Shown one piece after another: positions 34,514 to 63,253 of a DNA stretch of 64,000 nucleotides. Below the pieces are notes generated by a model, which saw only the letters and a list, made by a program, of their open reading frames with translations, did no database searches and had not been told where the DNA came from. The position numbers and the translations under genes are program-made. Each line of letters starts with the position of its first letter. Position 1 is the first letter of the stretch. Source of the DNA: Ignavibacteria bacterium (lineage in GTDB: Bacteria > Bacteroidota > Ignavibacteria > SZUA-365); the NCBI GenBank assembly GCA_016720835.1, contig JADKJW010000031.1:310625-374624 (forward strand), read 5' to 3'.

Positions 34514-34532
34514 GAAAGGATACACGCACCTC

Positions 34533-36608
34533 ATGCCATCGCCGATTGTCGACACCGGACCGGAACGCGCGCTCACGTCCAAAACGCATCCGCCGCAACC
34601 GCATGCCGGACATCATCACCCGCGCACGGATATCCTCGCGGGCGATCCCTCCAAGCGCAAACTCGTCCTCGTCGGGAATCCGAATGTCGGCAAATCCGTG
34701 TTCTTCAACTACCTCAGCGGCCTGTACGTCGATGTCTCCAATTTTCCCGGCACCACCGTGGAAGTTGCGAAAGCCTCCTACCTCGAGTACGATCTGTACG
34801 ACACGCCCGGCATCTACGGCGTGTCGTCCTTCAACGACGAGGAAACCGTCGCGCGCGACATCATCCTGAATGCGGATCTGATCGTCAACATCGTCGACGG
34901 CGTGCACCTCGAGCGCGATCTGTTCCTGACCCAGCAGCTCATCGACATGGGCAAGCCGGTCGGCGTGGCCGTGAACATGCTGGACGAGGCGCGCCATCAG
35001 AAACTCGACATCGATCTTGCCGCGCTGGAACGCGAACTCGGCGTGCCCGTCATCGGCACCGTCGCCACGCAGCGCGAGGGACTCGACGCCATCCACGACC
35101 TCATCCGCTCGGTACGCGAAGGACGTCAGAATCCGTCTCTCCACGCCGAGCTGCACCGCCTCCTGAGCGTGGTCGGCTCGCAGGGAGAAGCACTGCTCGT
35201 GCTCGAGGGCGATCCGGTCATCGCCGCGCGGCACGGCCTGAAGACCGTCGTCTCCTCGTCGCGCGACGAACTCTACATCGATCGGCGGAACCGCGTCAAC
35301 ACCATCGTCGCGCAGGTCGTCAGCCATGCGCAGACAGGCCGCCGCCTGTCGTCACTGTTCGGGCGCGCGACGGTCAGCCCGATCTGGGGTCTTCCGATTC
35401 TCGCCGTCATTCTCTTTCTGCTCTACCAGTTCGTCGGCGTGCTCGTGGCGCAGGATCTCGTCGGCTTCACCGAATCGACGGTGGGCAACCGGATCGTGGA
35501 AGTGGCGATCAAGGGCGCCGTCGCGCGCAATGCCGCGACGGAGATCACGGTGGAACGGGTGGGCGCTCACGACGAAATCATCGCAGAGCGAAACTTCAGC
35601 TTTCCTGATGGCCGCTTTGCGAATCCGGCGCTGTGGAAGGAAGCGCAGGACTTCGCATCAGGCCACACCGCCAACTGGACCTTCAAATATTCGAATCCCT
35701 GGATCGTCGTGTTCTTCGGGGAATTCGGCGCGATCACGATGACGCTCACGTACCTGCTCTTCCTGCTCATGCCGCTCGTCATCGGCTTCTACCTCGCGCT
35801 CTCGGTGCTGGAGGACAGCGGCTACCTGCCGCGGCTGGCGACGATCGTGGATCGCACGCTGCGCGTCATCGGGCTCAACGGACGCGCGATCATCCCGCTC
35901 ATTCTCGGATTCGGCTGCGTCACCATGGCTACCATTACGACGCGCCTGCTCGGGACGAACAGGGAAAAGACGATTGCAACCACGATATTGCAGCTCGCGA
36001 TCCCGTGCTCCGCGCAACTCGGCGTCATCGCCGCGCTGCTCGCGACCGCGGGTCCCGCGGCAACGGCGATCTACGCGGCGGTGATCTTTTCCTTCCTCGT
36101 CGCCGTCGGCACCTCGATGAGCAGGCTCATTCCCGGCGAAACATCCGCCCTGCTGCTCGACCTCCCGCCGATGCGCTTTCCCCGCGTCGGGAACGTGGTG
36201 CAGAAGACCGCCTACAAAACGTATTTCTTCATGAAGGAAGCCAGCCCGTGGTTCTTTGTCGGCGCGCTCGCGGTCAGCATTCTGCAGGTCACCGGCGCGC
36301 TCGTCGCGGTGCAGGACCTGCTGCAGCCGCTGGTCGTGTCCTGGCTCAAACTCCCGAAGGAGGCGGCCACCGCCTTCGTCATGGGACTCGTGCGACGCGA
36401 CTTCGGAGCCGCCGGACTGTATTCGATGGATCTCTCGCCGTATCAGACCGTCGCCGCCCTGGTCACCATCACCCTGTTCGTGCCCTGCATCGCGTCCGTC
36501 GTCGTGATGCTCAAGGAACGCGGCCTCAAGGAAGGCATGATCATCTGGACGGGCAGCTTCGTGCTCGCCCTCGTCGTCGGCGGCCTCGTCGCGCAGTTGC
36601 TGATTTGA
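34533..36608 (+). CDS. feoB: Ferrous iron transporter FeoB (N-terminal G-domain plus polytopic membrane domain)
   Basis: G1 (GNPNVGKS), G2-G4 motifs and the two Gate regions. 691 aa. Confidence 0.9.
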   Translation: MPSPIVDTGPERALTSKTHPPQPHAGHHHPRTDILAGDPSKRKLVLVGNPNVGKSVFFNYLSGLYVDVSNFPGTTVEVAKASYLEYDLYDTPGIYGVSSFNDEETVARDIILNADLIVNIVDGVHLERDLFLTQQLIDMGKPVGVAVNMLDEARHQKLDIDLAALERELGVPVIGTVATQREGLDAIHDLIRSVREGRQNPSLHAELHRLLSVVGSQGEALLVLEGDPVIAARHGLKTVVSSSRDELYIDRRNRVNTIVAQVVSHAQTGRRLSSLFGRATVSPIWGLPILAVILFLLYQFVGVLVAQDLVGFTESTVGNRIVEVAIKGAVARNAATEITVERVGAHDEIIAERNFSFPDGRFANPALWKEAQDFASGHTANWTFKYSNPWIVVFFGEFGAITMTLTYLLFLLMPLVIGFYLALSVLEDSGYLPRLATIVDRTLRVIGLNGRAIIPLILGFGCVTMATITTRLLGTNREKTIATTILQLAIPCSAQLGVIAALLATAGPAATAIYAAVIFSFLVAVGTSMSRLIPGETSALLLDLPPMRFPRVGNVVQKTAYKTYFFMKEASPWFFVGALAVSILQVTGALVAVQDLLQPLVVSWLKLPKEAATAFVMGLVRRDFGAAGLYSMDLSPYQTVAALVTITLFVPCIASVVVMLKERGLKEGMIIWTGSFVLALVVGGLVAQLLI

Positions 36609-49442: not shown

Positions 49443-49528
49443 CGACGTTCGCGAAACGTGACCGACGCCGCAGGACGCGTCATTCGGCGCAGGCGCAGTA
49501 CCCGGCTCGCCTACTTGCGACGGGCACG

Positions 49529-50105
49529 CTATGTCGTCGGAGCGCTTCTCCGCTCCCGCCACACCGCCCAGAGGAAGCGAGGGATCCCGAGCAGGTAGCG
49601 CCTCCACAGGCGCCCCGGTTCGAGGAGCAGCCGGTGCAGCCACTCGAGACCGATCGCGCGTCGCTGCGGCACGGTCGTCCACCGGGTCCCGCCCGTGGCG
49701 CGCATGCACATGTCCGGTGCCGAAAAACTCCGCCTCGACGTTGTGCAACAGGATGCGCGCGGTTTCGTCGTCGCCTCCGAGGAAGTAGTAGCGCACGGCG
49801 CCGGGCGGCATGCGCTCGAGGAGATGCGCGTAGAGATCGGTGCCGTTCACGCGCGCGGCGCGGATTCCGGTGAGGGCGCGGATCGCCAGCGCGACGCCCG
49901 CTCCGTCCGCGTGATTGATCTGGCACGCGTTCAGGAAATCAACCAGCCATGGTTCCTCCCGCGCCTGGAGCAGCGTCCAGAAATGCGGCGGCGTGATGAT
50001 GAGGCGCCGGCGCGACACCATGGATGCCGCGATCGCCTCCAGGATCTCGTCGCGACCCGCGAGGTCGATGCGGATGCCGAGGACCGTGACCGGGCGAGGG
50101 CTCAT
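49529..50105 (-). pseudogene. WecB/TagA/CpsF-family glycosyltransferase, apparently frameshifted or internally deleted
   Basis: The N-terminal 150 aa align with the WecG/TagA family (VTVLGIRIDLAGRDEILEAI...YYFLGGDDETARILLHNVEAEFFGTGHVHA). The family-typical C-terminus (AIGLEWLHRLLLEPGRLWRRYLLGIPRFLW) is in another frame (ORF 49529-49711). The total is about 190 aa against roughly 240 expected. Confidence 0.5.
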
Positions 50106-50192
50106 GGGATTACGGTGTGGGTCGGGAAAAGGAAAAGCGGCGAGAGACACGCTGTCGCCGCTTCCTGAAAATCATCGCCGCGCCCGTTGCGG

Positions 50193-50717
50193 TCAGCTCT
50201 TGGCGTCGTCCGTCGCCTCGCCCTCGCTTTCGTCCTCGTCGCCGCCGAAGCTGCCGAGGAGGAGGGACATGAGCATGACGCGGTTCTTGTCCTCGTCGGC
50301 GAGGAACGCGCCGTCGTACTGCAGCTGCGCGTGCTCCTTCGACATCGGGCGCCACGAGACCTCGTTGTCCTCCGTGAAGGGCGCCGCGTTCAGCGTGTAG
50401 CCGAGTTCCGTGAGCTTTGCGGCGACGCGATCCTTCAAGGGCGCGTTGTCCTCCAGCCACAGTTCCAGCAGCCGGTGCGCGAGGGCGGGAGTGATGCTGG
50501 CCTCGTCCGACAGCACCGGCACGATCATGACGTTTGGCGCGAGGCCGAGATGCCGGAAGCCCTTCAGCTGGTGCTTCCCGGAGGTCAGGCGGCAGACGGA
50601 GGCCTTGTCCTTCTCGAGTGCCGGCCGGATCAGGGAGTAGCGGAATTCGCGATCGTCCATCAGCGCGAAGACGGCATTGGCGGGATGCGTATACAGTTCT
50701 TGCTCTTCAGTTTCCAT
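50193..50717 (-). CDS. Hypothetical acidic cytoplasmic protein
   Basis: 174-aa ORF with coding-like codon usage and an acidic C-terminal tail (GGDEDESEGEATDDAKS). No domain recognised. Confidence 0.45.
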   Translation of the reverse strand: METEEQELYTHPANAVFALMDDREFRYSLIRPALEKDKASVCRLTSGKHQLKGFRHLGLAPNVMIVPVLSDEASITPALAHRLLELWLEDNAPLKDRVAAKLTELGYTLNAAPFTEDNEVSWRPMSKEHAQLQYDGAFLADEDKNRVMLMSLLLGSFGGDEDESEGEATDDAKS

Positions 50718-50810
50718 GAATCAATTCTATCCGTGTGTGAGTGTCAGAACGAATGATACGGAAAAATGCCGTCGCGATGAAGTGGAGCGCGCGGGGCCGA
50801 TCGTCCCCCG

Positions 50811-52196
50811 TTACAGGTAGATGTCCTTCTCCCCGCCGTCCACTTTCCGGATCATCTCCTCCGTTTTTTCCCGCGTCTTCTCCGGCATCGCGTCGAGTTC
50901 GGCCTGCATGAGGGCTTTCGCGGCCTCGCGGGTGTCGTCGCCGGCGAAGTCGTTGAGGTATTCCTCGAAGGTCGCGAGCGCGTTGGGCGCGCAGATCTTT
51001 CCGATGTTGCCGGACTTCGCGAGGTCCATGAAACGGTCGCCGGTGCGCCCGCTGCGGTAGCACGCGGTGCAGAAGCTGGGCATGTATCCGAGGGAGACGA
51101 CGTCGCGCACCACTTCGTCCATCGGGCGGTGGTCGCCCAGCTGGAACTGTTCGGAGGTCGCGTGATCGCTCGCCATGTAGCCGCCGGGATCGGTGCGCGA
51201 ACCCGCGGAAATCTGCGAGATGCCGAAGTCGAAGAGTCCGCGCCGCGTGTCGGCGTTCTCGCGCGTCGAGAGGATCATGCCGGTGTAGGGGACCGCGAGA
51301 CGGAGGATGGCGACCACGGTCTGGAAGTCCTCGTCGGCGACGGTCCACGGCGAATTGGTGCTGTCGAGCGGCGCGTTGAGCGCGGGTTCGAGGCGCGGAA
51401 TGGAAATCGTGTGCGGGCCCACGCCGTCGAAATGTTCTTCGAGGTGGAGGATGTGCTGCATCATCGCCATCACCTCGAAGCGATAGTCGTAGAGCCCGAA
51501 GAGGACGCCGATGCCGACGTCGTCGATGCCCGCCTCGATGGCGCGGTCCATCGCCGTCACGCGCCAGTCGTAGTCGCGCTTGCGACCGCTTGGATGCACG
51601 TGGGCGTAGGTCTCGCGATGGTAGGTCTCCTGAAAGCACTGGTAGGTGCCGATGCCGAAGGATTTGAGCGCGCGGAATTCGTCCACGGTCATCGGCGCGG
51701 CGTTGATGTTGGCGCGTCGGATGTTGGCGCCGTTCCAGCGCGCGTCGTAGACGGTGGCGATGGACTGCCCGATGTACTCGAGCGGCGCTTCCTTCGGGTG
51801 CTCGCCGGCGACGAGCAGGAGGCGTTTGTGTCCCTGTTCGAGAAGGAACTCCACCTCGCGCCGGATTTCGTCCTGCGTGAGCGTGGCGCGGACGAGTTCG
51901 TCGTTCTCGCGGCGGAAGGAGCAGTAGAGGCAGTTGTTGACGCAGCGGTTCGTCAGGTACAACGGGGCGAAGAACACGAGGCGGTTGCCGTAGATGCGTT
52001 TCTTTTCGTCGCGCGCGGCGAGGTGGATTTCCTCACGGATGTCCCTCGAGCGGGTGTGGAGGAGCGCGGCCACGTCCTCGAGCGTGAGCCGCTCGCGCGA
52101 GCGGGCCTTTGCGATGGTGTCGCGCTGTCGTCCTTCGTCGGTGAAGCGGGGGTCTGCAAGCAGTGCGGCAATGCGTTCTTCGTCGATGATCGGCAT
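50811..52196 (-). CDS. hydG: [FeFe]-hydrogenase H-cluster maturase HydG (radical SAM tyrosine lyase)
   Basis: Radical SAM motif (CVNNCLYC). It also has the HydG-specific C-terminal CX2CX22C motif (CTACYRSGRTGDRFMDLAKSGNIGKIC), which ThiH lacks. Its position is next to the hydrogenase genes. Confidence 0.8.
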   Translation of the reverse strand: MPIIDEERIAALLADPRFTDEGRQRDTIAKARSRERLTLEDVAALLHTRSRDIREEIHLAARDEKKRIYGNRLVFFAPLYLTNRCVNNCLYCSFRRENDELVRATLTQDEIRREVEFLLEQGHKRLLLVAGEHPKEAPLEYIGQSIATVYDARWNGANIRRANINAAPMTVDEFRALKSFGIGTYQCFQETYHRETYAHVHPSGRKRDYDWRVTAMDRAIEAGIDDVGIGVLFGLYDYRFEVMAMMQHILHLEEHFDGVGPHTISIPRLEPALNAPLDSTNSPWTVADEDFQTVVAILRLAVPYTGMILSTRENADTRRGLFDFGISQISAGSRTDPGGYMASDHATSEQFQLGDHRPMDEVVRDVVSLGYMPSFCTACYRSGRTGDRFMDLAKSGNIGKICAPNALATFEEYLNDFAGDDTREAAKALMQAELDAMPEKTREKTEEMIRKVDGGEKDIYL

Positions 52197-52253
52197 GAAT
52201 GCGGGTGACTGGGGTGTATCCGGGCGGAAGATGGAACCGTCAATGGCAAAACA

Positions 52254-53699
52254 TCAACGGCGCGTGTTCTGTTCCTGCATCTCGACGTGATCGTCCTCGA
52301 GCTCGGTGGCCGTCTCGACGAAGCGCTTCGGCAGGGTGATGAAAAAGGCCGTGCCGGGGCGCTCGGCGCCGTCGCCGAGGCGCGAGGGGGAGTCGACGCT
52401 GATGCTGCCGTGGAACTGGTGGATGATCTGCTTGACGATGGAGAGTCCGAGGCCGGTGCCTTCGGTGGTCTTCTTCTTGGAGACGGTGGTGCGGTAGAAG
52501 TCGTCGAAGATGCGGTTCAGCTCGCCCTTGGGAATGCCGATACCGGTGTCGGCGATTTCGATGCTGATGAGATCGTCGCGTTCCTTCAGGTGCACTTCCA
52601 CGACGCCCTCGGATTCCGTGTACTTGTGCGCGTTCGAGATGAGGTTGCCGAGGGCCAGCTTCAGCAGACGCGGTTCGGCCTCGATATGCAGATCTTCTTC
52701 GGCGTTGGTCCAGGTCGTGAAGCGGATTTTCTTGGCCATGAACATGATGCGCATCTCGTCGTAGATGTCCTCGAGCATCTCGGTCAGGTTGATGTCGGCC
52801 GCCTCGATGCGGTTGGCGAGCTTCACCTGCGAAAGCTGGAGGATGTCGTTGATGAGCGTGATGGCGGAGCTCAGCCGCGCGCGCGAGCGCTCCAGCGGCC
52901 GTTCCATCTCCTCGCTGAGCGCGCCGAAGGACTTGTCGAGCAGCATGTTGATGTAGGTGATCGCCGCGGCGATCGGGGTCTTCAGGTCGTGCACCACCGA
53001 CATGACGTAGCGCGATTTCGTCTTCTCGGCCTCTTCGAGCTGCTTGTAGGCGCGGGTCAGAGAACGCTCGCGCAGGTACAGCTCCTTGGAGATGGAATTC
53101 GCGAGGTAGTTGCTCACGAGCAGGGTGAAGGTGAAGACGAGGAAGAAGACGATGATGTACGGCGCGTTCGTGTAGAGCGGCGCGCCGAGGAACCCCACGA
53201 TCGCGTGATGCGGTATCGTGCCATGGTATTCGAGCAGCACCCCCGTGAGCATCGTGGAGAGCGACACCGCGATCACCACCGACACGACGGCGGACGGCAG
53301 GATCAGGCTCCCGATGATGATGTGGAACAGGAAGAAGAGGAAGAACGGCGACTCGATGCCGCCGGTGAAGTACATGATGCCCATCAGCACGAGCAGATCG
53401 GCGCTGATCTGAATGAGCGCGAAATGCAGGCCGTGGAAGGGCGCGTACGCGGCGGGCACCGCGCCGATGCTCCGGTGCAGCACGACGTTGTACGCGAGGA
53501 TGCACACCGTGATGATCGCGATCGGCAGCGTGTCGACCTGCAGCTGCGGCAGCGCCGCCATGCCGGCGAGGAAGACGGTCAGGGCGAGAACGGCGCCGTA
53601 GCGCAGCGTGATCAGCCAGAGGTTCCGGCGCTTCAGCGCGATCCAGAACTGGTCGAACATGATCCATTGCGGCGTCAGGGCAAGCATGCGTGCGCTCAT
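52254..53699 (-). CDS. Membrane-bound sensor histidine kinase (polytopic N-terminal sensor, HisKA plus HATPase_c)
   Basis: About 6 TM helices, an H-box (VVHDLKTPIAAAITYINML), an N-box (LALGNLISNAHKYT) and a G-box (GTGLGLSIV). Start MSARML; the in-frame ORF extends to 53771. Sits between hndD and hydG. Confidence 0.75.
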   Translation of the reverse strand: MSARMLALTPQWIMFDQFWIALKRRNLWLITLRYGAVLALTVFLAGMAALPQLQVDTLPIAIITVCILAYNVVLHRSIGAVPAAYAPFHGLHFALIQISADLLVLMGIMYFTGGIESPFFLFFLFHIIIGSLILPSAVVSVVIAVSLSTMLTGVLLEYHGTIPHHAIVGFLGAPLYTNAPYIIVFFLVFTFTLLVSNYLANSISKELYLRERSLTRAYKQLEEAEKTKSRYVMSVVHDLKTPIAAAITYINMLLDKSFGALSEEMERPLERSRARLSSAITLINDILQLSQVKLANRIEAADINLTEMLEDIYDEMRIMFMAKKIRFTTWTNAEEDLHIEAEPRLLKLALGNLISNAHKYTESEGVVEVHLKERDDLISIEIADTGIGIPKGELNRIFDDFYRTTVSKKKTTEGTGLGLSIVKQIIHQFHGSISVDSPSRLGDGAERPGTAFFITLPKRFVETATELEDDHVEMQEQNTRR

Positions 53700-53801
53700 G
53701 GGCGTTCCCCGTGTGATTGGGATATTGTTGTTCTGTTTTGTGGGCGAATGAGCCGGAAAAAGGGCACGCACCGCGGTCGCGGCGCGTGCCCTTCGTTTCC
53801 G

Positions 53802-55680
53802 TCAGGCGATGTACTTGCCGCGTTCAACGTAGTGCGTGTGCAGCAGCTTGTGGGACGTGTGCCCGCACGGACCCTCGACGAGGAACTTCTCGTAGATGTA
53901 CTTCACGTGCTCGTTCTCGTGCGACTTGCGCAGCGCGAGACTCGCGTCCTCGGCATAGATCGCCTCGGCGCGCTTCTGACGGATGTCCAGCGAGGTCGGG
54001 ATCGGCTGTCCGCCGCCGCCGATGCAGCCGCCCGGACATCCCATCACCTCGATGAAGTGCACGTCGGCGAGTTCGCCGCGCTTCATGGCTTCCATCACCT
54101 TCTTCGCGTTCGCGGTGCCGTGGGCGATCATGAAGTTGAGGCTGACGCCCTCGAGAAAGCCCCATTCGGGCTTGACGTTCTCGAGTTTCACCGAGGCCTG
54201 CTTGACGCCTTCGAAGCCGCGGCAGGGCATGATGTCGAGGTTCGCGAAGGGGACTTCGCGGCCCGTGACGAGTTCGTACGCCGTGCGCAGCGCGGCTTCC
54301 ATCACGCCGCCCGTGGCGCCGAAGATCAGGCCGGCGCCCGAGGCTTCACCGAAGGGATCGTCGAAGCCGGTTTTTTCGAGCTCCGGCAGGAACAGACCCG
54401 CTTCCTTGATCATCTGCGCCATCTCGCGCGTCGTCAGGCCGAAGTCCACGTCCTTGAAGCCGCTGTCGTCCATTTCGGGACGGTTGCACTCGAACTTCTT
54501 CGCCGAACAGGGCATGACGGCCACCGTGATGATGTCCTTCGGATCGATGCCGCGCTCCTGCGCGTAGAAGGTCTTGATCACCGCGCCGAACATCTGCTGC
54601 GGGGATTTGCAGCTCGACATGTGGCCCAGGTATTCCGGATAGAAGTGCTCGATGTACTTCACCCAGCCGGGCGAACAGGACGTGAACTGCGGGAGCTTCA
54701 CGTCGGGATTCTTGTCGACGAGCGCCGCCTTGAGCCGGAGCAGCAGTTCGGTGCCTTCTTCCATGATGGTGAGATCGGCGGTGAAGTTCGTGTCGAACAC
54801 GCGGTCGAAGCCGATCATGCGCAGCGCGGTGTTCAGCTCGCCCGTCATCGACCGTCCCGGCGCGAGGCCGAATTCCTCGCCGATGGCCGCGCGCGGCGAC
54901 GGCGCGGTCTGAATGACCACGTGCTTCTTCGGGTCGTCGATCGCGGTCCAGATGTCGTCGGACGGATCGTTCGCCTTGAGCGCCGCGGTGGGGCAGCGGT
55001 TGATGCACTGGCCGCAGTTGATGCAGACCACGTCGGCCAGCGGCTTGTCCATGAACGTGGAGATGCGCGTCTTGTCGCCCTTGCCCGACGGCCTCGAGCA
55101 CGCCCACTTCCTGCATGTCGATGCACGTGCGCACGCAGCGCCGGCAGAGGATGCACTTGTCCATGTCGCGGACGACGGAGTAGCTGGACTGGTCCACGCT
55201 GTGCGTGCGCTCGGTCACGTGGCCGAAGCGGTACGAGTCGACGCCGTACTCCTTCGCAAGGGTCTGCAGTTCGCAGTTGCTGTTGCGATGGCAGGAGTAG
55301 CACTCGCCGTAGTGTTCGCTCAGGAGCAGGTCCAGGATATGCCTGCGGGCCTTGCGGACCTTCTCCGACGTCGTGACGATTTTCATCGGGTTGGTGACGG
55401 GATAGGTGCAGGCCGCCTGCAGGGTGCGCATGCCTTCCACTTCCACGACGCACATGCGGCAGACGCCCGCGAGGCAGAGGTCGCTGTGATAACAGAGGGT
55501 GGGGATGTGGATGTTGTGCGTTTTGCAGGCGTCGAGCACGGTGGTCCCGATCGGGACGTGAAATTGCTGCCCGTTGATGGTGAGACTGACGAGCGACCCG
55601 ATCTCTCCGAGGGGGCTCGCCTTCACGGTCAATGGCTGTTGCGCATGCGGAGCGCGTGTGGTGTCTGATGATGGTTGCAT
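53802..55680 (-). CDS. hndD: [FeFe]-hydrogenase catalytic subunit (HndD/HydA-like; N-terminal 2Fe-2S and 4Fe-4S ferredoxin domains plus H-domain), read through one apparent frameshift near 55085
   Basis: N-terminal part (55680 to about 55086): 2Fe-2S (CYHSDLCLAGVCRMC) and a His-ligated cluster (CYSCHRNSNC), ending ...CILCRRCVRTCIDMQEVGVLEAVG. C-terminal part (ORF 53802-55052): MDKPLADVVCINCGQC... with H-cluster motifs (TSCSPGW, MPCSAKKFE, EVMGCPGGCIGGGGQP). Deleting one G from gtcgggcaagggcgacaag restores ...AVGKGDKTRISTFMDKPLADV. The 54346-55052 part of the upstream ORF is an out-of-frame extension. Confidence 0.8.
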
Positions 55681-55692
55681 TGCCGTGTCTGC

Positions 55693-56862
55693 TTATCGTT
55701 GTGAGAAGATTTCGTGCTGGAAATGGGTCAGGATCGAGAGAAACGGCGACGGGCTCGACTGCCCGAGACCGCACTTCGAGGCGACCTGCATGGACTGGCC
55801 GAGTTGCATCAGCTCGTTGAGGTAGCGCATCGAGCATTCGCCCTTCTCGATTTTCTCGACGCCGTCAAGCAGCTTGATGTTGCCGATGCGGCAGGGCGTG
55901 CACTGGCCGCAGGATTCCTCGACGAAGAACTCCATGAAGTTTTTCAGCACGTGAAGCATGTCGCGGCTCTCGTTGAACACGATCACCGATCCGCCCGTGG
56001 AGACGTCCTCGAACGCCACCTTGCGGCCGAATTCGCTCTTCGGGACGCAGGTGCCGGATGCCCCGCCGACCTGCACGGCCTTCGTGTCCTTCGCGCCGAC
56101 CATCTCCAGCAGTTCCGCGATGGACATGCCGAAGGGAATCTCGTAGACGCCCGGTTTTTCGCAGTCGCCCGACACCGACACGAGTTTCGAACCCGCCGAT
56201 TTGTCCGTGCCGATCTGCTTGTACCACTCGGCGCCCTTCGACAGGATCACCGCGACGCTGGCGAACGTCTCGACGTTGTTCACCGTGGTCGGATAGCCCA
56301 TGTATCCCGTGTTGACCGGGAAGGGCGGCCGGTTGCGCGCTTCGCCGCGATGGCCTTCGAGCGACTCGATGAGCGCGGTTTCTTCGCCGCACACGTAGGC
56401 GCCCGACCCGAGGCGGATATGAATGTCGAACGTGAAGTCCTTGCCGCAGACGTTTTCGCCGAGGCGATGATCCGCGCGCATTTTTTCCAGCACGCCCTCG
56501 AGCTTGGCGAGGAGGTAGCGATACTCGCCGCGCAGGTACAGGAAGCCCGTCTGCGCGCCGATCGTGTAGCCCGCGATGGCCATGCCTTCGAACACGAGTT
56601 CCGCGTACTCGTCAAGCAGCACGCGATCCTTGAAGGTGCCCGGCTCGCCCTCGTCGGCGTTGCAGACGACGAACTTTTTGTCCGCCATCGCCGCCGACGC
56701 GAGCATCCACTTGGTGCCCGTCGGGAAGCCCGCGCCGCCGCGGCCCTTGAGGCCCGACTCGCGCACTTCCATGACGATGTCCTGGCGCGTCTTCTTGAGC
56801 GCCTCCGCGAGGCCGTTTCCGTGCATGGCCGTATCAAACAGTACGATGCCTTTTCTTTCCAT
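55693..56862 (-). CDS. hndC: NuoF-like flavoprotein subunit of NAD(P)-dependent [FeFe] hydrogenase (HndC/HydB-like)
   Basis: FMN and NADH site motifs (GRGGAGFPTGTKW, CNADEGEPGTFKDR) and 4Fe-4S motifs (CGQCTPC...C). Strong AGGAGGA RBS. Confidence 0.8.
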   Translation of the reverse strand: MERKGIVLFDTAMHGNGLAEALKKTRQDIVMEVRESGLKGRGGAGFPTGTKWMLASAAMADKKFVVCNADEGEPGTFKDRVLLDEYAELVFEGMAIAGYTIGAQTGFLYLRGEYRYLLAKLEGVLEKMRADHRLGENVCGKDFTFDIHIRLGSGAYVCGEETALIESLEGHRGEARNRPPFPVNTGYMGYPTTVNNVETFASVAVILSKGAEWYKQIGTDKSAGSKLVSVSGDCEKPGVYEIPFGMSIAELLEMVGAKDTKAVQVGGASGTCVPKSEFGRKVAFEDVSTGGSVIVFNESRDMLHVLKNFMEFFVEESCGQCTPCRIGNIKLLDGVEKIEKGECSMRYLNELMQLGQSMQVASKCGLGQSSPSPFLSILTHFQHEIFSQR

Positions 56863-56874
56863 GGCGGTGTCCTC

Positions 56875-57348
56875 CTAGGCCCGGTTCTTGAGAATGTCCG
56901 CGATGCGCTGCGGGGTGAGGTGCGTGAACACCTCGTCGTTGATCAGCATCGCGGGGCCCTGGTCGCACATGCCCATGCAGTTCGCGAACTCGAGCGTGTA
57001 TTTCTTGTCCGTCGTGGTTTCGCCGAAGCGCACGCCGATCTCCCGCTCGAGCGTGCGGATGATCGCGTCCTTCCCCGCGAGATCGCAGGAGATCGTGCGG
57101 CAGAGACGGATGATGTTGCGGCCCTTGGGCTCGGTGCTCAGGAAGGAGTAGAAGGTGATGACGCCGTACACTTCCACGGGGTGGATGTCGAGCAGGCGCG
57201 CGATTTCCTGCTGCCCGAAATCGGAGATGTGGCCGTGCCGGATCTGGACCTGCTGAAGAATGGGCAGGAGCGCCTCGCGCCCGCTGCCGTGAACCGCGAT
57301 CAGCTTCTCGATCTCGGCCGTCAGGGCGTTCTTCTCAGTGACTAGCAT
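56875..57348 (-). CDS. hndA: NuoE-like thioredoxin-fold 2Fe-2S subunit (HndA/HydC-like)
   Basis: 157 aa with the 2Fe-2S cysteine pattern (CRTISCDLAG...CMGMCDQGP). Confidence 0.8.
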   Translation of the reverse strand: MLVTEKNALTAEIEKLIAVHGSGREALLPILQQVQIRHGHISDFGQQEIARLLDIHPVEVYGVITFYSFLSTEPKGRNIIRLCRTISCDLAGKDAIIRTLEREIGVRFGETTTDKKYTLEFANCMGMCDQGPAMLINDEVFTHLTPQRIADILKNRA

Positions 57349-57730
57349 GGGTGCTCCGTTTCGATTGTGCGAGATGAAACTTCACCTTGTCGAGCAAGAT
57401 GGCGGGCGGGACCGGCTTCTCCAGAAATTCCTCGATCGGCACCATTTCGCTTGCGCCGAAATTGAAGCCGATGGCCTTCGACACCGACGTCAGCATGATG
57501 ATGGGAATGGTGAATCCGGATTTGCGAAAACGGTTCGCGAGGTAGAAACCGTCGTCCGGCTCCTGCATCATCACATCGAGAATGATCAGATCGGGATGCT
57601 CGGCGTTGACGAGGGCGATCGCCTCGTCCACCGAGGCCGCCGAGACGACGCTGAATCCGTTCGCTTCGAGCAGCATCGTGTTGGCTTCCACGATATCCGG
57701 ATCATCGTCGATGATTGCGATTTTGTTCAT
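57335..57730 (-). CDS. Single-domain response regulator (CheY-like receiver)
   Basis: Acidic pocket and phosphoacceptor Asp (IIDDDPD...LIILDVMM), and the conserved Lys (EKP). AGGAG RBS. Overlaps the hndA start by 14 nt and is the first gene of the minus-strand operon. Confidence 0.8.
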   Translation of the reverse strand: MNKIAIIDDDPDIVEANTMLLEANGFSVVSAASVDEAIALVNAEHPDLIILDVMMQEPDDGFYLANRFRKSGFTIPIIMLTSVSKAIGFNFGASEMVPIEEFLEKPVPPAILLDKVKFHLAQSKRSTHASH

Positions 57731-58066
57731 CGGTACTCCTGTGGTGTATGGAAGGTGCGTGAGACAGTTCTGGCAGCATGGGCGAAAAACAACGGGGCGT
57801 GTCGGCGGTGTTTCGGAGGAGGTGCTTCATTGTGCAATCGCTAAATTAATCACTATAGACATTGCAAACAAAAAGAAAATCACCCAGGCTCTCTTGATTC
57901 ACCCTATGATATATCCGAATTAAGGGACTTTGTTCGTTTTAATGCGTGAAGAAATTCACCATTTGATCGAAAAATAGGTTGACCTTTTGTCCGAAATTTC
58001 CGACATTTGTTCACGATCGATCGCTGCATCAAGACAGAACTTTAAAAATCAAGCACCTGCGTCATC

Positions 58067-60106
58067 ATGCCTGTCATTTCAACCATACCCGAGCGCTGCA
58101 AGCGGTGTTACTGCTGCGTCAGGGAATGCCCCGCAAAAGCCATACAGATCAGTCACGGCCAGGCCGTCGTCATTGCCGAGCGCTGCATCGGATGCGGCAA
58201 TTGCCTGAAAGTCTGTTCGCAGAACGCGAAGGCCGTTCGCAACGGCATCGGAGGCATCGCCGCGCGGCTCGCGCTGCCGGGCAGCGCCGAGAAGATCGCC
58301 TGCATCGCGCCGTCCTTCCCGGCCGCGTTTCCGGACGTGGCGCCCCTGCGCGTCGTCGGCGCGCTGCGCGCACTCGGGTTCACCAAGGTCCTCGAGGTCG
58401 GCTTCGGCGCGGATCTGGTCAGCGCGGAGTACCGGCGCTATGTGGACCAGGCGGAAGGCACCGTCATCACCACGCCGTGCCCTTCCGTCGTGGAACTGAT
58501 CGAGAAATACTACCCCGAACTGATTCCGAACCTCGCGCCGATCGTCTCGCCGATGATCGCCTGCGGCAAGGTGGCGCGCGAGCGCTACGGCGCGGGCGCC
58601 TTCGTCGTCTTCATCGGCCCCTGCATCGCGAAGAAGCTCGAGATCGCCGATCCGGAATGCGACGGCGTGATCAACGAGGCGCTGACCTTCGACGAGACCG
58701 CCAAACTTCTCGCGAACGCCGGCGTCGACGTGCACACGCAACCGGAGCGCGAGTTCGACCAGCCGCGCGCGAATCTCGGGCAGATCTACCCGCTCTCCGG
58801 CGGATTGCTCAAGAGCGCGGGCATCGGCGCGGACGTGATGGACGCGGAGGTGATCGTCGTCGAAGGCCGCGAACACTGCCTCAACATCATCAACGAGATC
58901 GCCTCCGGGAAGGTCGGCACCAAGCTCATCGACATCCTCTTCTGCGAGGGCTGCGTCAACGGTCCCGGCATGCACAGCAGCCTGAACTACTTCGAGAAGC
59001 GCGAGCGCATCATCGGCTTCGTGAAGGAACGCACCGCCACGCTCAACGCCGCCATCTGGAAGAACTCGATGACGAACTACGCGGGCATCAGCCTCGCGCG
59101 CGGCTTCCGCAACTGCCGCATCGAGGAACGCGCGGTGCCGGACGCGGAGATCGACGCCATCCTCACCGCCGGCGGAAAGGCGCGCGTCGAGAACCGCCTC
59201 AATTGCGGCGCCTGCGGCTATCCCGACTGCCGGCAGATGGCGGTGGCCATCGCCCTCGGCCTCGCCGAACAGGAAATGTGCCTGCCCTATACGATCGACA
59301 ACCTCGAGCGCTCGCACCGCGAACTGGCCCAGGCCCAGGAGCAGCTCATCCACACCGAGAAGCTCGCCTCCGTCGGACAGCTCGCCGCGGGCGTCGCGCA
59401 CGAAATCAACAACCCGCTCGGCACCATTCTCCTCTACTCCCATCTGCTGCTCAAGCAACTGCAGGACGCGGAGCCGGCCCGCAAGGACATCCAGTTCATC
59501 GTCCAGGAAGCGAACCGCTGCAAGACCATCGTCTCGAGCCTCCTCAACTTCGCGCGACAGGGGAAGCTCGCCGTCGCGGAGACGACGGTCGGCGATCTCG
59601 TCGCGTCCATCGTCGCCATGATCGCGCATCGCGAGGAGTTCGGCGCCATCCGCATCGGCACCACCATCGCGCCCGATCTCCCGCCGCTGCACGTGGACGT
59701 GGACCAGATGAAACAGGTGCTCCTCAACATCGCGATCAACGCCTGCGAGGCCATGCCCGCGGGCGGGACGCTCGATTTCACCGCCGGGAAAGGCGAGAGG
59801 GACGAGATCGTGTTCACCATCGAGGACAGCGGCGGCGGCATCCCGAAGGAGAACATGTCCAAGCTCTTCACGCCGTTCTTCACGACGAAGCAGATCGGCA
59901 AGGGCACGGGACTCGGCCTCCCCATCGCCTACGGCATCGTCAAGATGCACCATGGCAGCATCACGGTGCGCAGCGACGCCGGGAAGGGCACCGCCTTCCG
60001 CATCGCCATCCCGTCCGATGTCCGCGACCTCCATTCCGGCCCGATGACGCCGCTCGAATTCGCGTCCACCCTCGACGCGTCCGCGTCGTCTTCACTGCAG
60101 CAGTGA
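58067..60106 (+). CDS. Sensory [FeFe]-hydrogenase-like protein (HydS-type H-domain with accessory 4Fe-4S clusters) fused to a HisKA/HATPase_c histidine-kinase transmitter
   Basis: Two N-terminal ferredoxin motifs (CKRCYCCVRECP; CIGCGNCLKVCS). H-cluster motifs with the ligating Cys retained but the proton-relay Cys replaced (TTPCPS instead of TSCCP; GPCIAKKLE; FCEGCVNGPG). A HydS-like CX2CX4CX16C motif (CGACGYPDCRQMAVAIALGLAEQEMC). No PAS domain. An H-box (GVAHEINNPLGTILLYSHLL), an N-box (LLNIAINACEAM) and G-boxes (DSGGGIP, GKGTGLGLPI). Confidence 0.8.
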   Translation: MPVISTIPERCKRCYCCVRECPAKAIQISHGQAVVIAERCIGCGNCLKVCSQNAKAVRNGIGGIAARLALPGSAEKIACIAPSFPAAFPDVAPLRVVGALRALGFTKVLEVGFGADLVSAEYRRYVDQAEGTVITTPCPSVVELIEKYYPELIPNLAPIVSPMIACGKVARERYGAGAFVVFIGPCIAKKLEIADPECDGVINEALTFDETAKLLANAGVDVHTQPEREFDQPRANLGQIYPLSGGLLKSAGIGADVMDAEVIVVEGREHCLNIINEIASGKVGTKLIDILFCEGCVNGPGMHSSLNYFEKRERIIGFVKERTATLNAAIWKNSMTNYAGISLARGFRNCRIEERAVPDAEIDAILTAGGKARVENRLNCGACGYPDCRQMAVAIALGLAEQEMCLPYTIDNLERSHRELAQAQEQLIHTEKLASVGQLAAGVAHEINNPLGTILLYSHLLLKQLQDAEPARKDIQFIVQEANRCKTIVSSLLNFARQGKLAVAETTVGDLVASIVAMIAHREEFGAIRIGTTIAPDLPPLHVDVDQMKQVLLNIAINACEAMPAGGTLDFTAGKGERDEIVFTIEDSGGGIPKENMSKLFTPFFTTKQIGKGTGLGLPIAYGIVKMHHGSITVRSDAGKGTAFRIAIPSDVRDLHSGPMTPLEFASTLDASASSSLQQ

Positions 60107-60113
60107 GCACGCC

Positions 60114-61604
60114 ATGACAGACAAACCCACGCTGCTCGTCGTCGACGACGAGTTCGGCATGCGCGAAGGCATCTCGCGCATCTTCGCCCTCGAGGGTTAC
60201 GACGTGACCGTCGCGGAGAACGGCACCGACGGCATCGCGCGCGGCCTGGAGCGCGAGTTCGACGTCACCCTCCTCGACCTGAAAATGCCCGACATCGACG
60301 GACTCACCGTGCTGCGCCGGCTCCGCGAAACGTATCCCGACACCGAGTACCTGATGATGACGGCCTTCGCCGGCATCGACTCGGCGGTGGAGGCCACACG
60401 CAACGGGGCGTACACGTACATCCCGAAACCGTTCACGCCCGACCAGATTGTCTTCGAGGTCGATCGCGCCCTCGCCAAACGCCGCCTCACGATGGAGGCG
60501 CGCGAGCTGCGGGCCGATCAGGAGCGTCGCCTCCTCGAAATCCATCTCGAGCAGAGCCGCCTCCGCACCATCATCAACGCCATCAGCGACGCGGTGTTCG
60601 TGACCAACCTCGAGGAGCAGATCGTGCTGGCAAATCCGCAGACCCGGGCGCTGTTCGGCTTCTCGTCGCGCGTCATCGCCGGCACGCACATCGATGACAT
60701 CTTCCCGAAGGAAGTGACCGACGTGATCCGCGACGCCGCCGCGAAGGCGCCGCTGGGCGTGGAACTCGTGTCGCGCGAGTGGGAGATGAAACCCGAACTC
60801 GAACTCGTCGTGTCGATGAAGACCGTGCCGCTGCGCGACCGCGACGACGCGGTCATCGGCTTCGTCTCCACGCTGCAGGACGTCACCGAGCTGAAAAAAC
60901 TCGACATGCAGAAATCGCAGTTCGTCTCCATGGTGGCGCATGAACTCAAGGCCCCGCTGGCCGCGATCTCGGGGTACCTCGAGACCATGCAGGGCAAGCT
61001 GCTCGGCGCCGACATGGCGAAGTACGAGACCATGATCGACCGCTCGAATCTCCGCCTGCGCTCGATGATCGACCTGATCAACGACCTGCTGAACATCAGC
61101 CGCAAGGACCTCGGCACCGCGCGTCGCGAGATCGTCGCGGTGGCCGTGCCGGAAGCCGTCGAATCCGTCGCGGACTTCCTTCGCCAGGAAATGGCGAAGC
61201 GCGCGCTGCGCTTCGTCACGGACTACGCCGACGCGCTGCCGACCATCGACGTGGACCGCGACGAATTCTCGCGTCTCCTCACCAACCTCCTCAGCAACGC
61301 CATCAAGTACAACCGCGAGGGCGGCGAGATCCGCGTCGCCGCGCGCGCCGAGGAGGATTCCGTCATCCTCAGCGTCGGCGACACCGGCATCGGCCTCACC
61401 TCGGAGGAGCGATCACAGCTGTTCCGGCAATTCTACCGCGCCAAGAACGAGCAGACGCGTTCCATCCCCGGCACCGGCCTCGGCCTCTCCATCGTCAAGG
61501 GCATCGTCGAATCCTATCACGGCAACATCGACGTGCAGAGCGAGTTCGGCGTCGGAACCACCTTCGTCCTGCGCATCCCGGAGCATTTCGTCGACCGCTC
61601 CTGA
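60114..61604 (+). CDS. Hybrid signal-transduction protein: receiver domain, PAS domain, HisKA and HATPase_c
   Basis: N-terminal REC (LLVVDDEFGMREGISRIFALEGYDV...LLDLKMPDIDG). A PAS-like region (IINAISDAVFVTNLEEQIVLANPQTRALFG). An H-box (MVAHELKAPLAAISGYLE), then N, G1 and G2 boxes. It starts 7 nt after the preceding stop. Confidence 0.8.
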   Translation: MTDKPTLLVVDDEFGMREGISRIFALEGYDVTVAENGTDGIARGLEREFDVTLLDLKMPDIDGLTVLRRLRETYPDTEYLMMTAFAGIDSAVEATRNGAYTYIPKPFTPDQIVFEVDRALAKRRLTMEARELRADQERRLLEIHLEQSRLRTIINAISDAVFVTNLEEQIVLANPQTRALFGFSSRVIAGTHIDDIFPKEVTDVIRDAAAKAPLGVELVSREWEMKPELELVVSMKTVPLRDRDDAVIGFVSTLQDVTELKKLDMQKSQFVSMVAHELKAPLAAISGYLETMQGKLLGADMAKYETMIDRSNLRLRSMIDLINDLLNISRKDLGTARREIVAVAVPEAVESVADFLRQEMAKRALRFVTDYADALPTIDVDRDEFSRLLTNLLSNAIKYNREGGEIRVAARAEEDSVILSVGDTGIGLTSEERSQLFRQFYRAKNEQTRSIPGTGLGLSIVKGIVESYHGNIDVQSEFGVGTTFVLRIPEHFVDRS

Positions 61605-61792
61605 TTTCGGATTGAACAGTTGTCACCCCGAGTCACTCATTGCACGGCATCCCATGAGCGTCGTCAATGACAGTTCCGTGAGAAGAAAAGGCGATCGCGA
61701 AACACACGAAATGTCCGAATGAGTCCGAAAAAAGATGTTTTCGTAGTTTTCGCTTTATTCGATTGCTTCGTGATCTCTTCTGAATCCGGTAT

Positions 61793-63253
61793 TCAATCCG
61801 AAATTGGAAATCCGCAATCCGCAATCCTCGCGATCCCGCGCAGCATGCCGCGGAAGACGAGGGCGTGCACCGGGTAGATGCCGTACCAGTAGAGGATTCC
61901 CGCGAGTCCGACGGGATCGAAGATCGCGGTCTGCCGGATGACGGCGCCGTCGCCGTCGGGGGTGACCTGATACTCGAGCCACGCGCGGCCGGGGACTTTC
62001 ATTTCTGCGAAGAGACGCAACTGCACACCGGGTTCGATGACTTCCACGCGCCACCAGTCCACGGCGTCGCCGACGCACAGATCGACGGGGTGCCGCCGCC
62101 CGCGGCGCATGCCGACGCCTCCGGCGAGGATGTCCGCGAAACCGCGCAGGCGCCAGAGCCAGTTGCCCCAGTACCAGCCCGTTTCACCGCCGATGCGCTG
62201 AATGGGCGCGAAGGCCCGCGCGGGTGTGCATGCGACGCGGATGCTGCGCTGATCGAGGAGGCGGTTTCCGAAGCGCGTGCCGCCCCAGCCGGGCGCGATG
62301 CCCGCGGACGAGAGCGCGTCGGACCAGCGCGTCTCGGCGAACTCGCGGTCCTCGTTGCGCAGCGCGTCCGCGATCGCGTCGCGCACGCTCTTCGGGCGCA
62401 GAGGGAAATCCGCGAGCGCGGACTGATCCTCCACGACGGTGGGATGCTTGAGGCTTTCGGCGAGCTTGCGCCCGACGCGCGCGTACAGCGGCGTGACGAG
62501 TCCGAGCCAGAGGCTCGAGAGCCGCGGCGTGAGCACCGGCACGGGGATCATCACGCGCCGCAGGCCGCGCTGGCGGGCGTACTCGCGCATCAGGTCGCCG
62601 TAGGACAGGCGGTCCGCCGCGCCGATTTCATAGACGCGGTTGCCGTCGGCCCGCACGTCGAGCGCGAGCGCGAGGTACGCGAGGAGGTCGGCGATGCCGA
62701 TCGGCTGCGCTTTCACCGACACCCAGCGCGGCGTGATCATGACCGGCAGGCGTTCGACCAGGGCGCGGATCATTTCGAAGGAGAGGCTTCCGGAGCCGAT
62801 GACGATGGACGCGCGCAGCTCGATCACCTGCACGCCGGATGCGGCGAGCACGCGGCCCACCTGCTGGCGGCTGCGCAGATGCGAGGACAGCGCCTCGGCG
62901 GAGGAACCGAGTCCGCCGAGGTACACGATGCGGCGCACCCCGGCCTCGCGCGCGGCCGCCCCGAAATTCTCCGCGGCGATGCGGTCCAGCGTCTCGAAGT
63001 CGCGGTCGTCGCCCATGGAATGCACGAGGTAGTACGCCGTGTCCACTCCGCGCATCGCGGCGCCCAGGCTCGCGGCGTCGAGCACGTCGCCCTGCGCGAT
63101 CTCCGTGTCGCCGCCGACGCGCGCGGCGAGCTGTGCCGGTCTCCGAGCGAGGCAGCGCACGCGCTCGCCCGCTTCCTCGAAGCGCCGCAGCAGCCGTCCG
63201 CCGATGTACCCGGTTGCGCCGGTGAGCAGGATGAGACGGGGGGATGTTGGCAT
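61793..63253 (-). CDS. NAD(P)-binding SDR/NmrA-like protein fused to a C-terminal DUF2867-like domain
   Basis: Rossmann motif (LLTGATGYIGGRLL). The C-terminal about 170 aa are polyketide-cyclase/SRPBCC-like (WYWGNWLWRLRG...). Confidence 0.65.
   Translation of the reverse strand: MPTSPRLILLTGATGYIGGRLLRRFEEAGERVRCLARRPAQLAARVGGDTEIAQGDVLDAASLGAAMRGVDTAYYLVHSMGDDRDFETLDRIAAENFGAAAREAGVRRIVYLGGLGSSAEALSSHLRSRQQVGRVLAASGVQVIELRASIVIGSGSLSFEMIRALVERLPVMITPRWVSVKAQPIGIADLLAYLALALDVRADGNRVYEIGAADRLSYGDLMREYARQRGLRRVMIPVPVLTPRLSSLWLGLVTPLYARVGRKLAESLKHPTVVEDQSALADFPLRPKSVRDAIADALRNEDREFAETRWSDALSSAGIAPGWGGTRFGNRLLDQRSIRVACTPARAFAPIQRIGGETGWYWGNWLWRLRGFADILAGGVGMRRGRRHPVDLCVGDAVDWWRVEVIEPGVQLRLFAEMKVPGRAWLEYQVTPDGDGAVIRQTAIFDPVGLAGILYWYGIYPVHALVFRGMLRGIARIADCGFPISD

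Follow-up and report, generated by a model that had tools for sequence, protein, structure and literature searches.

A HydS-Like Sensor Kinase Facing a Non-Bifurcating-Type [FeFe] Hydrogenase Operon in an Ignavibacteria Bacterium, with a Candidate Rex-Type Operator

NADH-dependent [FeFe] hydrogenases of the non-bifurcating type are separated from bifurcating enzymes by four features (Losey 2020, PMC7311640), with no extra Fe-S domains in the beta subunit, Thr or Ser at position 232 and Lys, Ser, or Ala at position 234 of Thermotoga maritima HydB, Tyr at position 367 of the same protein, and no GGPSG in the SLBB region. In Hydrogenedentota and Acidobacteriota, this kind goes by the name sub-type II BfuABC and is described as lacking bifurcation; IALB_0255-0257 of Ignavibacterium album belong to it. 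HydS proteins combine losses of Cys299 and Met353 with a Cx2Cx4Cx16C motif (PMC8163306), and class C1 of the [FeFe] hydrogenases in HydDB is described as "histidine kinase-linked (putative)"; a 2022 review still terms the sensory role of sensory [FeFe] hydrogenases putative. How a putative sensor of this kind passes on its signal can be read out simply where it is fused to a histidine kinase, namely as autophosphorylation with versus without H2. As for transcription, the Rex consensus TTGTGAANNNNTTCACAA and the control of FeFe hydrogenase genes and hydG by Rex are documented (PMC6391272, PMC2883068), and in Caldicellulosiruptor bescii Rex represses FeFe hydrogenase genes, hydG, and rex itself. 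Here, these systems are compared with a locus found within 64,000 nucleotides of an Ignavibacteria bacterium genome (contig JADKJW010000031.1 of assembly GCA_016720835.1; hereafter, the window), in which an [FeFe] hydrogenase operon is divergent from a gene encoding a HydS-like domain fused to a histidine kinase.

The best explanation of the locus as a whole, held with somewhat more confidence than doubt, is that a non-bifurcating hydrogenase module is subject to Rex-gated transcription and to an H2 relay that starts from the HydS-kinase, and that a frameshift in its catalytic subunit gene is an error or recent lesion.

The hydrogenase operon and its frameshifted hydA

Genes were called from a listing of open reading frames (ORFs) combined with a codon-position GC filter and Pfam/NCBIfam scans. 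The minus-strand operon starts with a stand-alone receiver (57335-57730; 131 amino acids, Response_reg only), whose stop overlaps the start of hydC by 14 nucleotides. It continues with hydC (56875-57348), encoding a NuoE-like [2Fe-2S] subunit of 157 amino acids (PF01257, E 3.9e-47; NF005722, 148.1 bits against a cut-off of 141); hydB (55693-56862), encoding a NuoF-like flavoprotein in its short form (389 amino acids); hydA (53802-55680), encoding the group A [FeFe] hydrogenase catalytic subunit (625 amino acids after frameshift repair, identified by its domains and NF040763); a membrane histidine kinase (52254-53699; 481 amino acids; 6TM_PilS-like, HisKA, HATPase_c); and hydG (50811-52196; 461 amino acids), encoding a radical S-adenosylmethionine (SAM) maturase of the H-cluster (TIGR03955, 529.7 bits against a cut-off of 312; Radical_SAM and BATS domains). 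Beyond an intergenic region of 336 bp with an AT-rich core (57731-58066), the plus strand carries the sensor kinase gene (58067-60106; 679 amino acids) and, starting 8 nucleotides past it, a gene for a receiver-PAS-histidine kinase (60114-61604; 496 amino acids; Response_reg 8-113, PAS 149-261, HisKA 266-333, HATPase_c 381-490). A first-pass annotation, made from the sequence by a model, had given this gene order, these strands, and this domain content, all of which the ORF and family scans bore out, along with the exact length of the AT-rich gap (computed GC content of 0.36-0.39 over 57820-58071 against about 0.62 for the window) and the statement that no receiver or kinase of the locus carries a DNA-binding domain.

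Judged by its sequence marks, the hydrogenase is a trimeric HydC-short HydB-HydA enzyme of the NADH-dependent, non-bifurcating type. HydB carries only the Complex1_51K (flavin mononucleotide [FMN]/NADH), SLBB, and NADH_4Fe-4S (N3-cluster) domains and none of the extra Fe-S domains, and its sequence marks NADEGEPGTFKDR, GSGAYVCGEE, and GGASG are invariant in 10 orthologues from four phyla. In alignment with the bifurcating protein 7t2r_B, the NADH-site motif reads PGTFKDR (T76/K78) rather than PGAFMDR, the FMN-site motif GAYVCGEE (Y156) rather than GAFVCGEE, and the SLBB region GGASG rather than GGPSG; the T. maritima HydB positions were placed on the window protein by motif, not by direct alignment with TmHydB. 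The nearest solved relative of HydB is HoxF of an NAD-reducing [NiFe] hydrogenase (5xf9). Compared with the electron-bifurcating HydABC enzymes (HydDB A3; T. maritima, A. woodii), the window HydB has neither the [2Fe-2S] domain at the N-terminus nor the 2x[4Fe-4S] domain at the C-terminus, and it differs likewise from the long HydB (661 amino acids) of a neighbouring module in the related locus L082, which carries Fer4 domains. Because the short HydB shows all four of the non-bifurcating marks of Losey 2020, the earlier description of the enzyme as possibly bifurcating-type is unsupported, as are the "hnd" names given to its genes. The NADP-reducing Hnd enzyme of Desulfovibrio fructosovorans, HndABCD, has four subunits, including HndB and a long HndC, whereas the window has only three structural genes, no HndB, and a short NuoF-like subunit. 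The correction from bifurcating to non-bifurcating changes the metabolic reading of the locus: a hydrogenase driven by NADH alone can work only if the partial pressure of H2 is low, and an H2 sensor adjoining it therefore makes physiological sense.

The first-pass annotation had treated hydA as a single gene and overlooked a frameshift. As sequenced, one surplus base at 55088-55089 gives two ORFs in different frames, 54346-55680 for the N-terminal Fe-S part (Fer2_4, NADH-G_4Fe-4S_3, Fer4) and 53802-55052 for the H-cluster part (Fe_hyd_lg_C, Fe_hyd_SSU). This base is the sole gap over 4870 nucleotides against the short-read contig L086 (98.15% identical), which reads GAGGCCA-CGGGCAAG at the site where the window reads GAGGCCGTCGGGCAAG, and it is the sole frame-breaking gap in 1879 nucleotides against L001, a 71%-related locus. 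L086, L001, and L085 each have an unbroken HydA (625, 624, and 626 amino acids, respectively), and where the window and L086 differ, the changes are for the most part synonymous, before as well as after the shift. With one base removed, the protein scores 816.7 bits on NF040763 (NCBIfam "NADH-dependent [FeFe] hydrogenase, group A6"; cut-off 765), against 575.7 bits for the C-terminal ORF as encoded. Since the 98%-identical relative and two further orthologues are intact, the extra base most likely reflects a mistake of the assembly or a lesion that arose very recently in this strain. Programmed frameshifting was rejected: the site shows neither a stop nor a slippery sequence context, the wrong frame runs on without interruption for some 230 codons, and the base is missing from close relatives.

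The H-cluster motifs L1 (TSCSPGW), L2 (MPCSAKKFE), and L3 (EVMGCPGGCIGGGGQP) are all present in HydA, whose nearest solved relative is 7q4v_A (E 5.8e-192). The L1 motif (54679-54699) was considered as a possible defect and rejected, the same variant being common to the solved HydA1 7q4v_A and most relatives; its Ser (TSCSPGW, not TSCCPGW) aligns with the second Cys of the Clostridium pasteurianum CpI motif, which is presumably a [4Fe-4S] ligand.

The identical NCBI entries for six proteins of the region are MBL0177492-MBL0177497, from a metagenome-assembled Ignavibacteria bacterium (locus tag IPP94_20000 in one of them; contig of 379,677 bp), while exact-protein look-ups of the sensor kinase and of P0121 returned no contig. 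These accessions run straight from the membrane kinase (MBL0177494) to the receiver (MBL0177495), so that the three structural subunits, HydA, HydB, and HydC, seem to be without a protein entry at NCBI, and protein-based surveys would miss the hydrogenase. For the intact hydB and hydC, the missing records may be an annotation effect of fused NuoE-NuoF reference proteins; such a fusion has been reported for Mros2487 of Melioribacter roseus. Elsewhere on the plus strand, an alpha-2-macroglobulin-like gene looks split into 6483-10217 (MG2, bait region) and 10341-12674 (A2M, MG10), the two halves being in the same frame and separated by two consecutive stops and about 120 nucleotides that read better in another frame. 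It may be a second disrupted gene, which, if so, would fit an assembly prone to indel errors.

The fused sensor kinase and the divergent intergenic region

The sensor kinase matches Fer4 (twice), Fe_hyd_lg_C (E 1.2e-50), PF04060, HisKA, and HATPase_c, and its N-terminal 410 residues include two ferredoxin-type [4Fe-4S] motifs (starting at residues 11 and 40) and the H-domain. The H-cluster cysteines C138, C186, C293, and C296 are invariant in 14 relatives, as are a C-terminal Cx2Cx4Cx16C motif (C380, C383, C388, C405) and His445; across phyla, the four H-cluster cysteines are invariant together with the Lys/Glu of L2. In contrast to these conserved positions, the proton-relay Cys299 is replaced by Pro (TTPCPS), Met353 by Gly (GPC), and Met497 by Leu (DILFC). 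A predicted helix begins directly after Cys405 and leads to the phospho-acceptor His445, and some relatives have an insertion of exactly seven residues in this linker, as expected of a coiled-coil signalling helix. An AlphaFold monomer supports the helical linker only weakly: the H-domain is modelled confidently, and the linker and phospho-acceptor helices have predicted local distance difference test (pLDDT) values below 50. The kinase core is nearest to ZraS, AtoS, and NtrB, and all of the best 120 database matches to the sensor kinase share its fused hydrogenase-kinase architecture. Going by the class description, the protein would be assigned to the HydDB C1 kind; because the best C1 reference reportedly lacks a HATPase domain, the fused form may be a distinct sub-type of C1.

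With regard to mechanism, the HydS domain is proposed to bind an H-cluster and, lacking the proton relay, to report H2 as a redox state instead of turning it over. That state would pass through the C-terminal [4Fe-4S] domain and the helical linker to the kinase, from which phosphate would move to the receiver of the hybrid kinase and/or the stand-alone receiver, and the membrane kinase would supply a second, membrane-borne input.

The intergenic region shares conserved sequence blocks with L001 and a further related locus, L002. Motif searching identified a candidate Rex-type operator, GCGTGAAGAAATTCACCA, at 57944-57961, which matches 11 of the 14 specified positions of the Rex consensus; its GTGAA-N4-TTCAC core is exact and occurs once in the 64-kb window (mean of 0.05 in shuffled sequences). 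The 17-mer of the operator is also present in L001, a perfect TGTGA-N6-TCACA stands in L002, and sites with at least 11 of 14 Rex positions were found in five of six orthologous intergenic regions, including that of L086. In L001, L002, and L084, the Rex-type sites lie about 80 to 115 nucleotides upstream of the sensor-kinase start, and L084 keeps its site despite the loss of hydCBA. Across 1.4 Mb of related loci, perfect TGTGA-N6-TCACA sites occur 18 times against about 1.3 expected, most of them directly upstream of a 215-amino-acid gene that precedes NuoE. This gene is rex (one copy scores 212.5 bits on NF003995, cut-off 126), and it stands upstream of the hydrogenase and sensor-kinase genes in 23 of 83 related loci.

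Taken from sequence comparison, these observations suggest that a classical regulator, Rex, is probably involved in control of the locus. A Rex-type NADH/NAD+ repressor encoded elsewhere would gate transcription from the shared AT-rich region by binding the palindrome at 57944-57961, with the consequence that the hydrogenase would be made when NADH accumulates; it is coherent for an NADH-oxidising hydrogenase to be under the control of an NADH/NAD+ sensor. The first-pass annotation had called the locus a complete regulatory neighbourhood, which it is not, since hydE and hydF are absent and the window does not encode the likely transcription factor; the alternative it had itself allowed, that of a regulator outside the window, gains support from the Rex-type operator and from the rex genes that precede hydrogenase genes in relatives.

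A second block conserved with L001, GTGCAATCGCTAAATTAATCACTATAG at 57830-57856, is a possible promoter element of the minus-strand operon. No sigma-54 motif was found in the six orthologous intergenic regions, including that of the window, and no sigma-70 consensus in the window's intergenic region, although the scan may not cover the promoter type of this organism. There was no credible Rfam match over 49500-62500, and the receiver-gene leader has no stable fold, its folding being no stronger than that of shuffled sequences (z = +1.2). The intergenic region also contains a second near-palindrome, TGTCCGAAATTTCCGACA, at 57988-58005, and repeated TCCGAA and TTCACC half-sites (57914-57919, 57990-57995), TCCGAA being present in the intergenic region of L001 as well.

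Related loci, receivers, and the output of the relay

To place the locus among its relatives, 80 genome loci were fetched through the sensor kinase, and the window proteins were mapped onto them by tblastn; 70 of these loci, from many phyla, contain a full-length sensor kinase. HydA is present in 53 of the 70, directly upstream on the sensor-kinase strand in 36; a stand-alone receiver lies directly downstream of the sensor kinase in 45, and hydG was found in 20. A PAS-kinase homologue, with or without a receiver, comes next in 58 of the 70 loci, within 1.6 kb downstream of the sensor kinase. Two hydrogenase modules can be told apart: module 1, whose proteins are only about 45% identical to those of the window, comprises NuoE, a long HydB, and HydA and precedes the sensor kinase in most phyla, while module 2 is the orthologue of the window operon (receiver, NuoE, short NuoF, HydA, and kinase). 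In the Ignavibacteriales locus L082 (5735-19656), the sensor genes stand between the two modules in a run of twelve same-strand genes. This run links a HydCBA of the bifurcating type, followed by the sensor kinase, a receiver, a receiver-kinase, and a further receiver, with a HydCBA of the non-bifurcating type, DUF5808, and a kinase; there, the H2 sensor may choose between two hydrogenases according to H2 pressure. The window, L001, L002, and L085 have module 2 only, inverted and hence divergent, and lack the small receiver that usually follows the sensor kinase. The window clade is a minimal case, having a single sensor kinase, hybrid kinase, stand-alone receiver, and hydrogenase, and the cultured relative M. 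roseus has the full two-hydrogenase version.

Orthologues of the membrane kinase follow HydA in Ignavibacteria loci. A second survey collected metagenome loci through the short NuoF, and hence loci not selected by the sensor kinase. Of 16 informative loci (NuoF at least 60% identical), 14 have a receiver immediately upstream of NuoE; a kinase follows HydA wherever the contig allows, and the sensor kinase is adjacent in only some; more distant NuoF relatives are mostly without the receiver. The receiver-HydC-HydB(short)-HydA-kinase unit occurs in four or more phyla, whether the sensor kinase accompanies it or not, and its recurrence in a survey where the sensor kinase is adjacent in only some loci indicates that module 2 is an autonomous conserved unit. 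In L084 (7874-13558), whose sensor kinase is 64% identical, hydC, hydB, and hydA are gone; what is left is the sensor kinase with the receiver-PAS-kinase, the stand-alone receiver, and a kinase in truncated form. In L167 (6979-17113), an assembly with many split genes, a PAS-kinase and an NtrC-type sigma-54 regulator take the place of the sensor kinase and face a receiver-HydCBA-DUF3795-kinase unit.

In the stand-alone receiver, D8/D9, D52, T81, and K105 are invariant and the phospho-acceptor pocket is complete. The stand-alone receivers beside hydrogenase and sensor genes form a subfamily, those of modules 1 and 2 being paralogues, with GFxF at the usual place of alpha4 (residues 80-87, 57470-57493), an atypical alpha4 region, and DVMMxEPDDGF after the phospho-aspartate. 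The window protein falls below the cut-off of a DivK-like model (NF045717, 54.9 bits against 160). The single-domain response regulators CheY and DivK act by binding other proteins, and the window receiver, likewise receiver-only and with a complete pocket, would be a functional analogue by this comparison. Two receiver-NuoE fusion proteins turned up and were not kept as evidence of interaction: P0265 is regarded as an artefact because its assembly, that of L167, is riddled with split genes, and P0264, on a 1.2-kb contig, is not verifiable.

The membrane kinase, whose start was set by orthologue alignment and the identical NCBI protein P0121, has about six hydrophobic segments (residues 27-201), no extracytoplasmic domain, and the His-box VVHDLKTPI. 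Membership in the RegB/PrrB/ActS group was considered and rejected, as the protein scores 100.7 bits on NF033792, far below the cut-off of 350, and its GGIESPF motif, with Ser for Asn, does not match GGXXNPF, the motif of that group.

Because no receiver of the locus binds DNA, the relay would act by modulating other kinases or proteins, or else through an orphan regulator encoded elsewhere. Five Pfam-annotated relatives likewise have no DNA-binding regulator among their kinase and receiver genes, which recur in about 70 loci. The orphan-regulator possibility, in which the phosphorelay ends in transcription through a distant DNA-binding protein, for example an NtrC-type sigma-54 activator phosphorylated by the sensor or hybrid kinase, is tentative and on balance doubtful; it concerns the relay output only and is compatible with the favoured explanation. 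It fits the resemblance of the kinase core to ZraS, AtoS, and NtrB, the NtrC-type regulator directly after the sensor kinase in L031 and L073, and the facing arrangement in L167. However, the window has no NtrC-type regulator; of about 165 related loci, just 8 have one as a neighbour, and only in the two just named does it directly follow the sensor kinase; the six intergenic regions lack a -24/-12 promoter motif; and the conserved partners are output-less receivers.

Competing explanations and comparison with known systems

Several points weigh against the Rex-gated, H2-sensing explanation favoured here. The window contains no rex gene, so that Rex, if present in the genome, must be encoded outside it; the operator departs from 3 of the 14 positions that the consensus specifies, L085 lacks such a site, and a factor of the CRP/FNR type could bind a similar palindrome. 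As sequenced, hydA encodes no full-length enzyme, and maturation of both H-clusters depends on genes outside view, since hydE and hydF are missing from the window. No experimental study of a HydS-kinase fusion was found in the literature searched, and one paper doubts that the H-cluster motifs are kept in Hydrogenedentota C1 proteins. The pairing of kinases with receivers is wholly deduced.

The model of the first-pass annotation, unlikely on present evidence, takes the locus as a self-contained neighbourhood in which three kinases and two receivers form a switch between respiration and H2 metabolism around a possibly bifurcating, NAD(P)-linked enzyme, acting post-transcriptionally. Its anatomy and the absent DNA-binding outputs were confirmed, the membrane kinase resembles the redox-sensing RegB/PrrB proteins distantly and below threshold (NF033792 and GGIESPF, as above), and only fermenting cells of M. 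roseus were found to contain the hydrogenases of the corresponding cluster (PMC5492636). The latter observation fits regulation between respiration and fermentation without identifying the responsible regulator, and by this analogy a link of the locus to that choice is plausible. The HydB type, however, is non-bifurcating, and the Rex-type operator points to a regulator elsewhere. Nor is the locus self-contained in maturation: hydG is the only H-cluster maturase in the locus, as the first-pass annotation had said, and in the 64 kb HydE queries from relatives match only hydG and HydF queries only the EngA GTPase. As for the alternative complex III that it had placed in the window, ActD is present (1-837, E 3.8e-60), followed by a c-type cytochrome (830-1480) and a 391-amino-acid ORF without a family match, but this is an operon tail (1-2652, plus strand) cut by the window edge, and it lies 48 kb from the hydrogenase locus with unrelated housekeeping genes between.

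Direct control of the hydrogenase, not via transcription, by the output-less pair of a leading receiver with an atypical alpha4 face and a trailing membrane kinase is improbable in our estimation. The phosphorylated receiver would bind HydCBA, or a kinase acting on HydCBA, and the flux from NADH to H2 would be tuned by H2, through the fused HydS-kinase, and by a membrane signal; gene linkage is the sole support for enzyme control by the receiver. If true, this would be a two-component system with a metabolic enzyme complex as its output.

That the HydS-like domain might be an Fe-S redox or O2 sensor never given a [2Fe] subcluster, and not an H2 sensor, seems similarly improbable. The function of group C1 is only putative, with the doubts already mentioned on Hydrogenedentota proteins, and hydG is the sole maturase nearby. 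Against this stand the invariance across phyla of the four H-cluster cysteines and the L2 Lys/Glu, a substitution pattern matching spectroscopically studied HydS proteins that bind an H-cluster, and the tight linkage of the sensor gene to hydrogenase and maturase genes.

Decay of the locus in this strain, with hydA a true pseudogene, hydE and hydF lost, and the sensor kinases kept for another role or as remnants, carries little probability. In its favour, the frameshift is present in the sequence, the NCBI accessions skip the structural subunits (494 to 495), hydE follows hydG in L085 and not in the window, and L084 kept its signalling genes without a hydrogenase. Against it, there is a single lesion in 1879 nucleotides, all hydA motifs are intact, synonymous substitutions prevail in the comparison with L086 on either side of the shift, no damage is seen in hydB, hydC, hydG, or the kinase genes, hydE and hydF commonly lie at other sites, and the missing hydB and hydC records may reflect the fused NuoEF references. 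In Ignavibacterium album, for instance, hydE and hydF lie near its other hydrogenase, and the short NuoF-like form has been noticed in that species.

Among neighbouring features, a conserved hypothetical protein of 174 amino acids (MBL0177492; 50193-50717, minus strand; no Pfam/NCBIfam match) may form the operon tail; its identity to the last ORF of the L085 operon, which follows hydE there, and to an ORF of L084 is 52-54%, and no homologue was found in L001. A Fur-family regulator adjoins FeoB ferrous-iron transporter genes (33837-36608, plus strand), an ordinary arrangement that is relevant to a cell making many Fe-S proteins. The window, with a GC content of about 62%, also encodes a type IX secretion sorting domain, and both features are in keeping with the Bacteroidota/Ignavibacteriota group.

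The comparison with described systems can be drawn part by part. With the NADH-dependent [FeFe] hydrogenases that do not bifurcate, the window shares the three subunits and a HydB that lacks the N-terminal [2Fe-2S] and C-terminal 2x[4Fe-4S] domains and bears the T/K, Y, and non-GGPSG marks; its operon adds a leading receiver and a trailing kinase, which are unmentioned in the literature covered, and its hydA is frameshifted. With the HydS proteins of Thermotoga maritima (TmHydS, group C) and Thermoanaerobacter mathranii (TamHydS, group D), the sensor kinase has in common the H-domain Cys ligands, the loss of Cys299, and the C-terminal Cx2Cx4Cx16C motif, and Met353 is Gly in both TmHydS and the window protein; in contrast to TmHydS, the window protein has no PAS domain after the Fe-S domain (M2f type) and carries there, via the helical linker, a HisKA/HATPase_c kinase. 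As in HydDB class C1, a hydrogenase-like sensor linked to a histidine kinase adjoins group A hydrogenase genes. In common with the C. bescii Rex regulon, a site of the TTGTGAANNNNTTCACAA type lies upstream of hydrogenase genes, and in 23 relatives rex is adjacent and autoregulated, whereas the window lacks rex and its candidate site keeps only 11 of 14 consensus positions. The HoxBC-HoxJ-HoxA system of Cupriavidus necator (Ralstonia eutropha) is alike in outline, leading from a slow hydrogenase (group 2b) to a histidine kinase and on to hydrogenase genes (PMC5665086), but its metal site is [NiFe] and unrelated, its sensor and kinase are separate proteins, and its output is the NtrC-type DNA-binding HoxA, which has no counterpart in the window. 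The parts of the locus all belong to kinds already described or catalogued, and what is worth following is the lack of a DNA-binding output in the window and its annotated relatives together with the recurring receiver-hydrogenase-kinase module.

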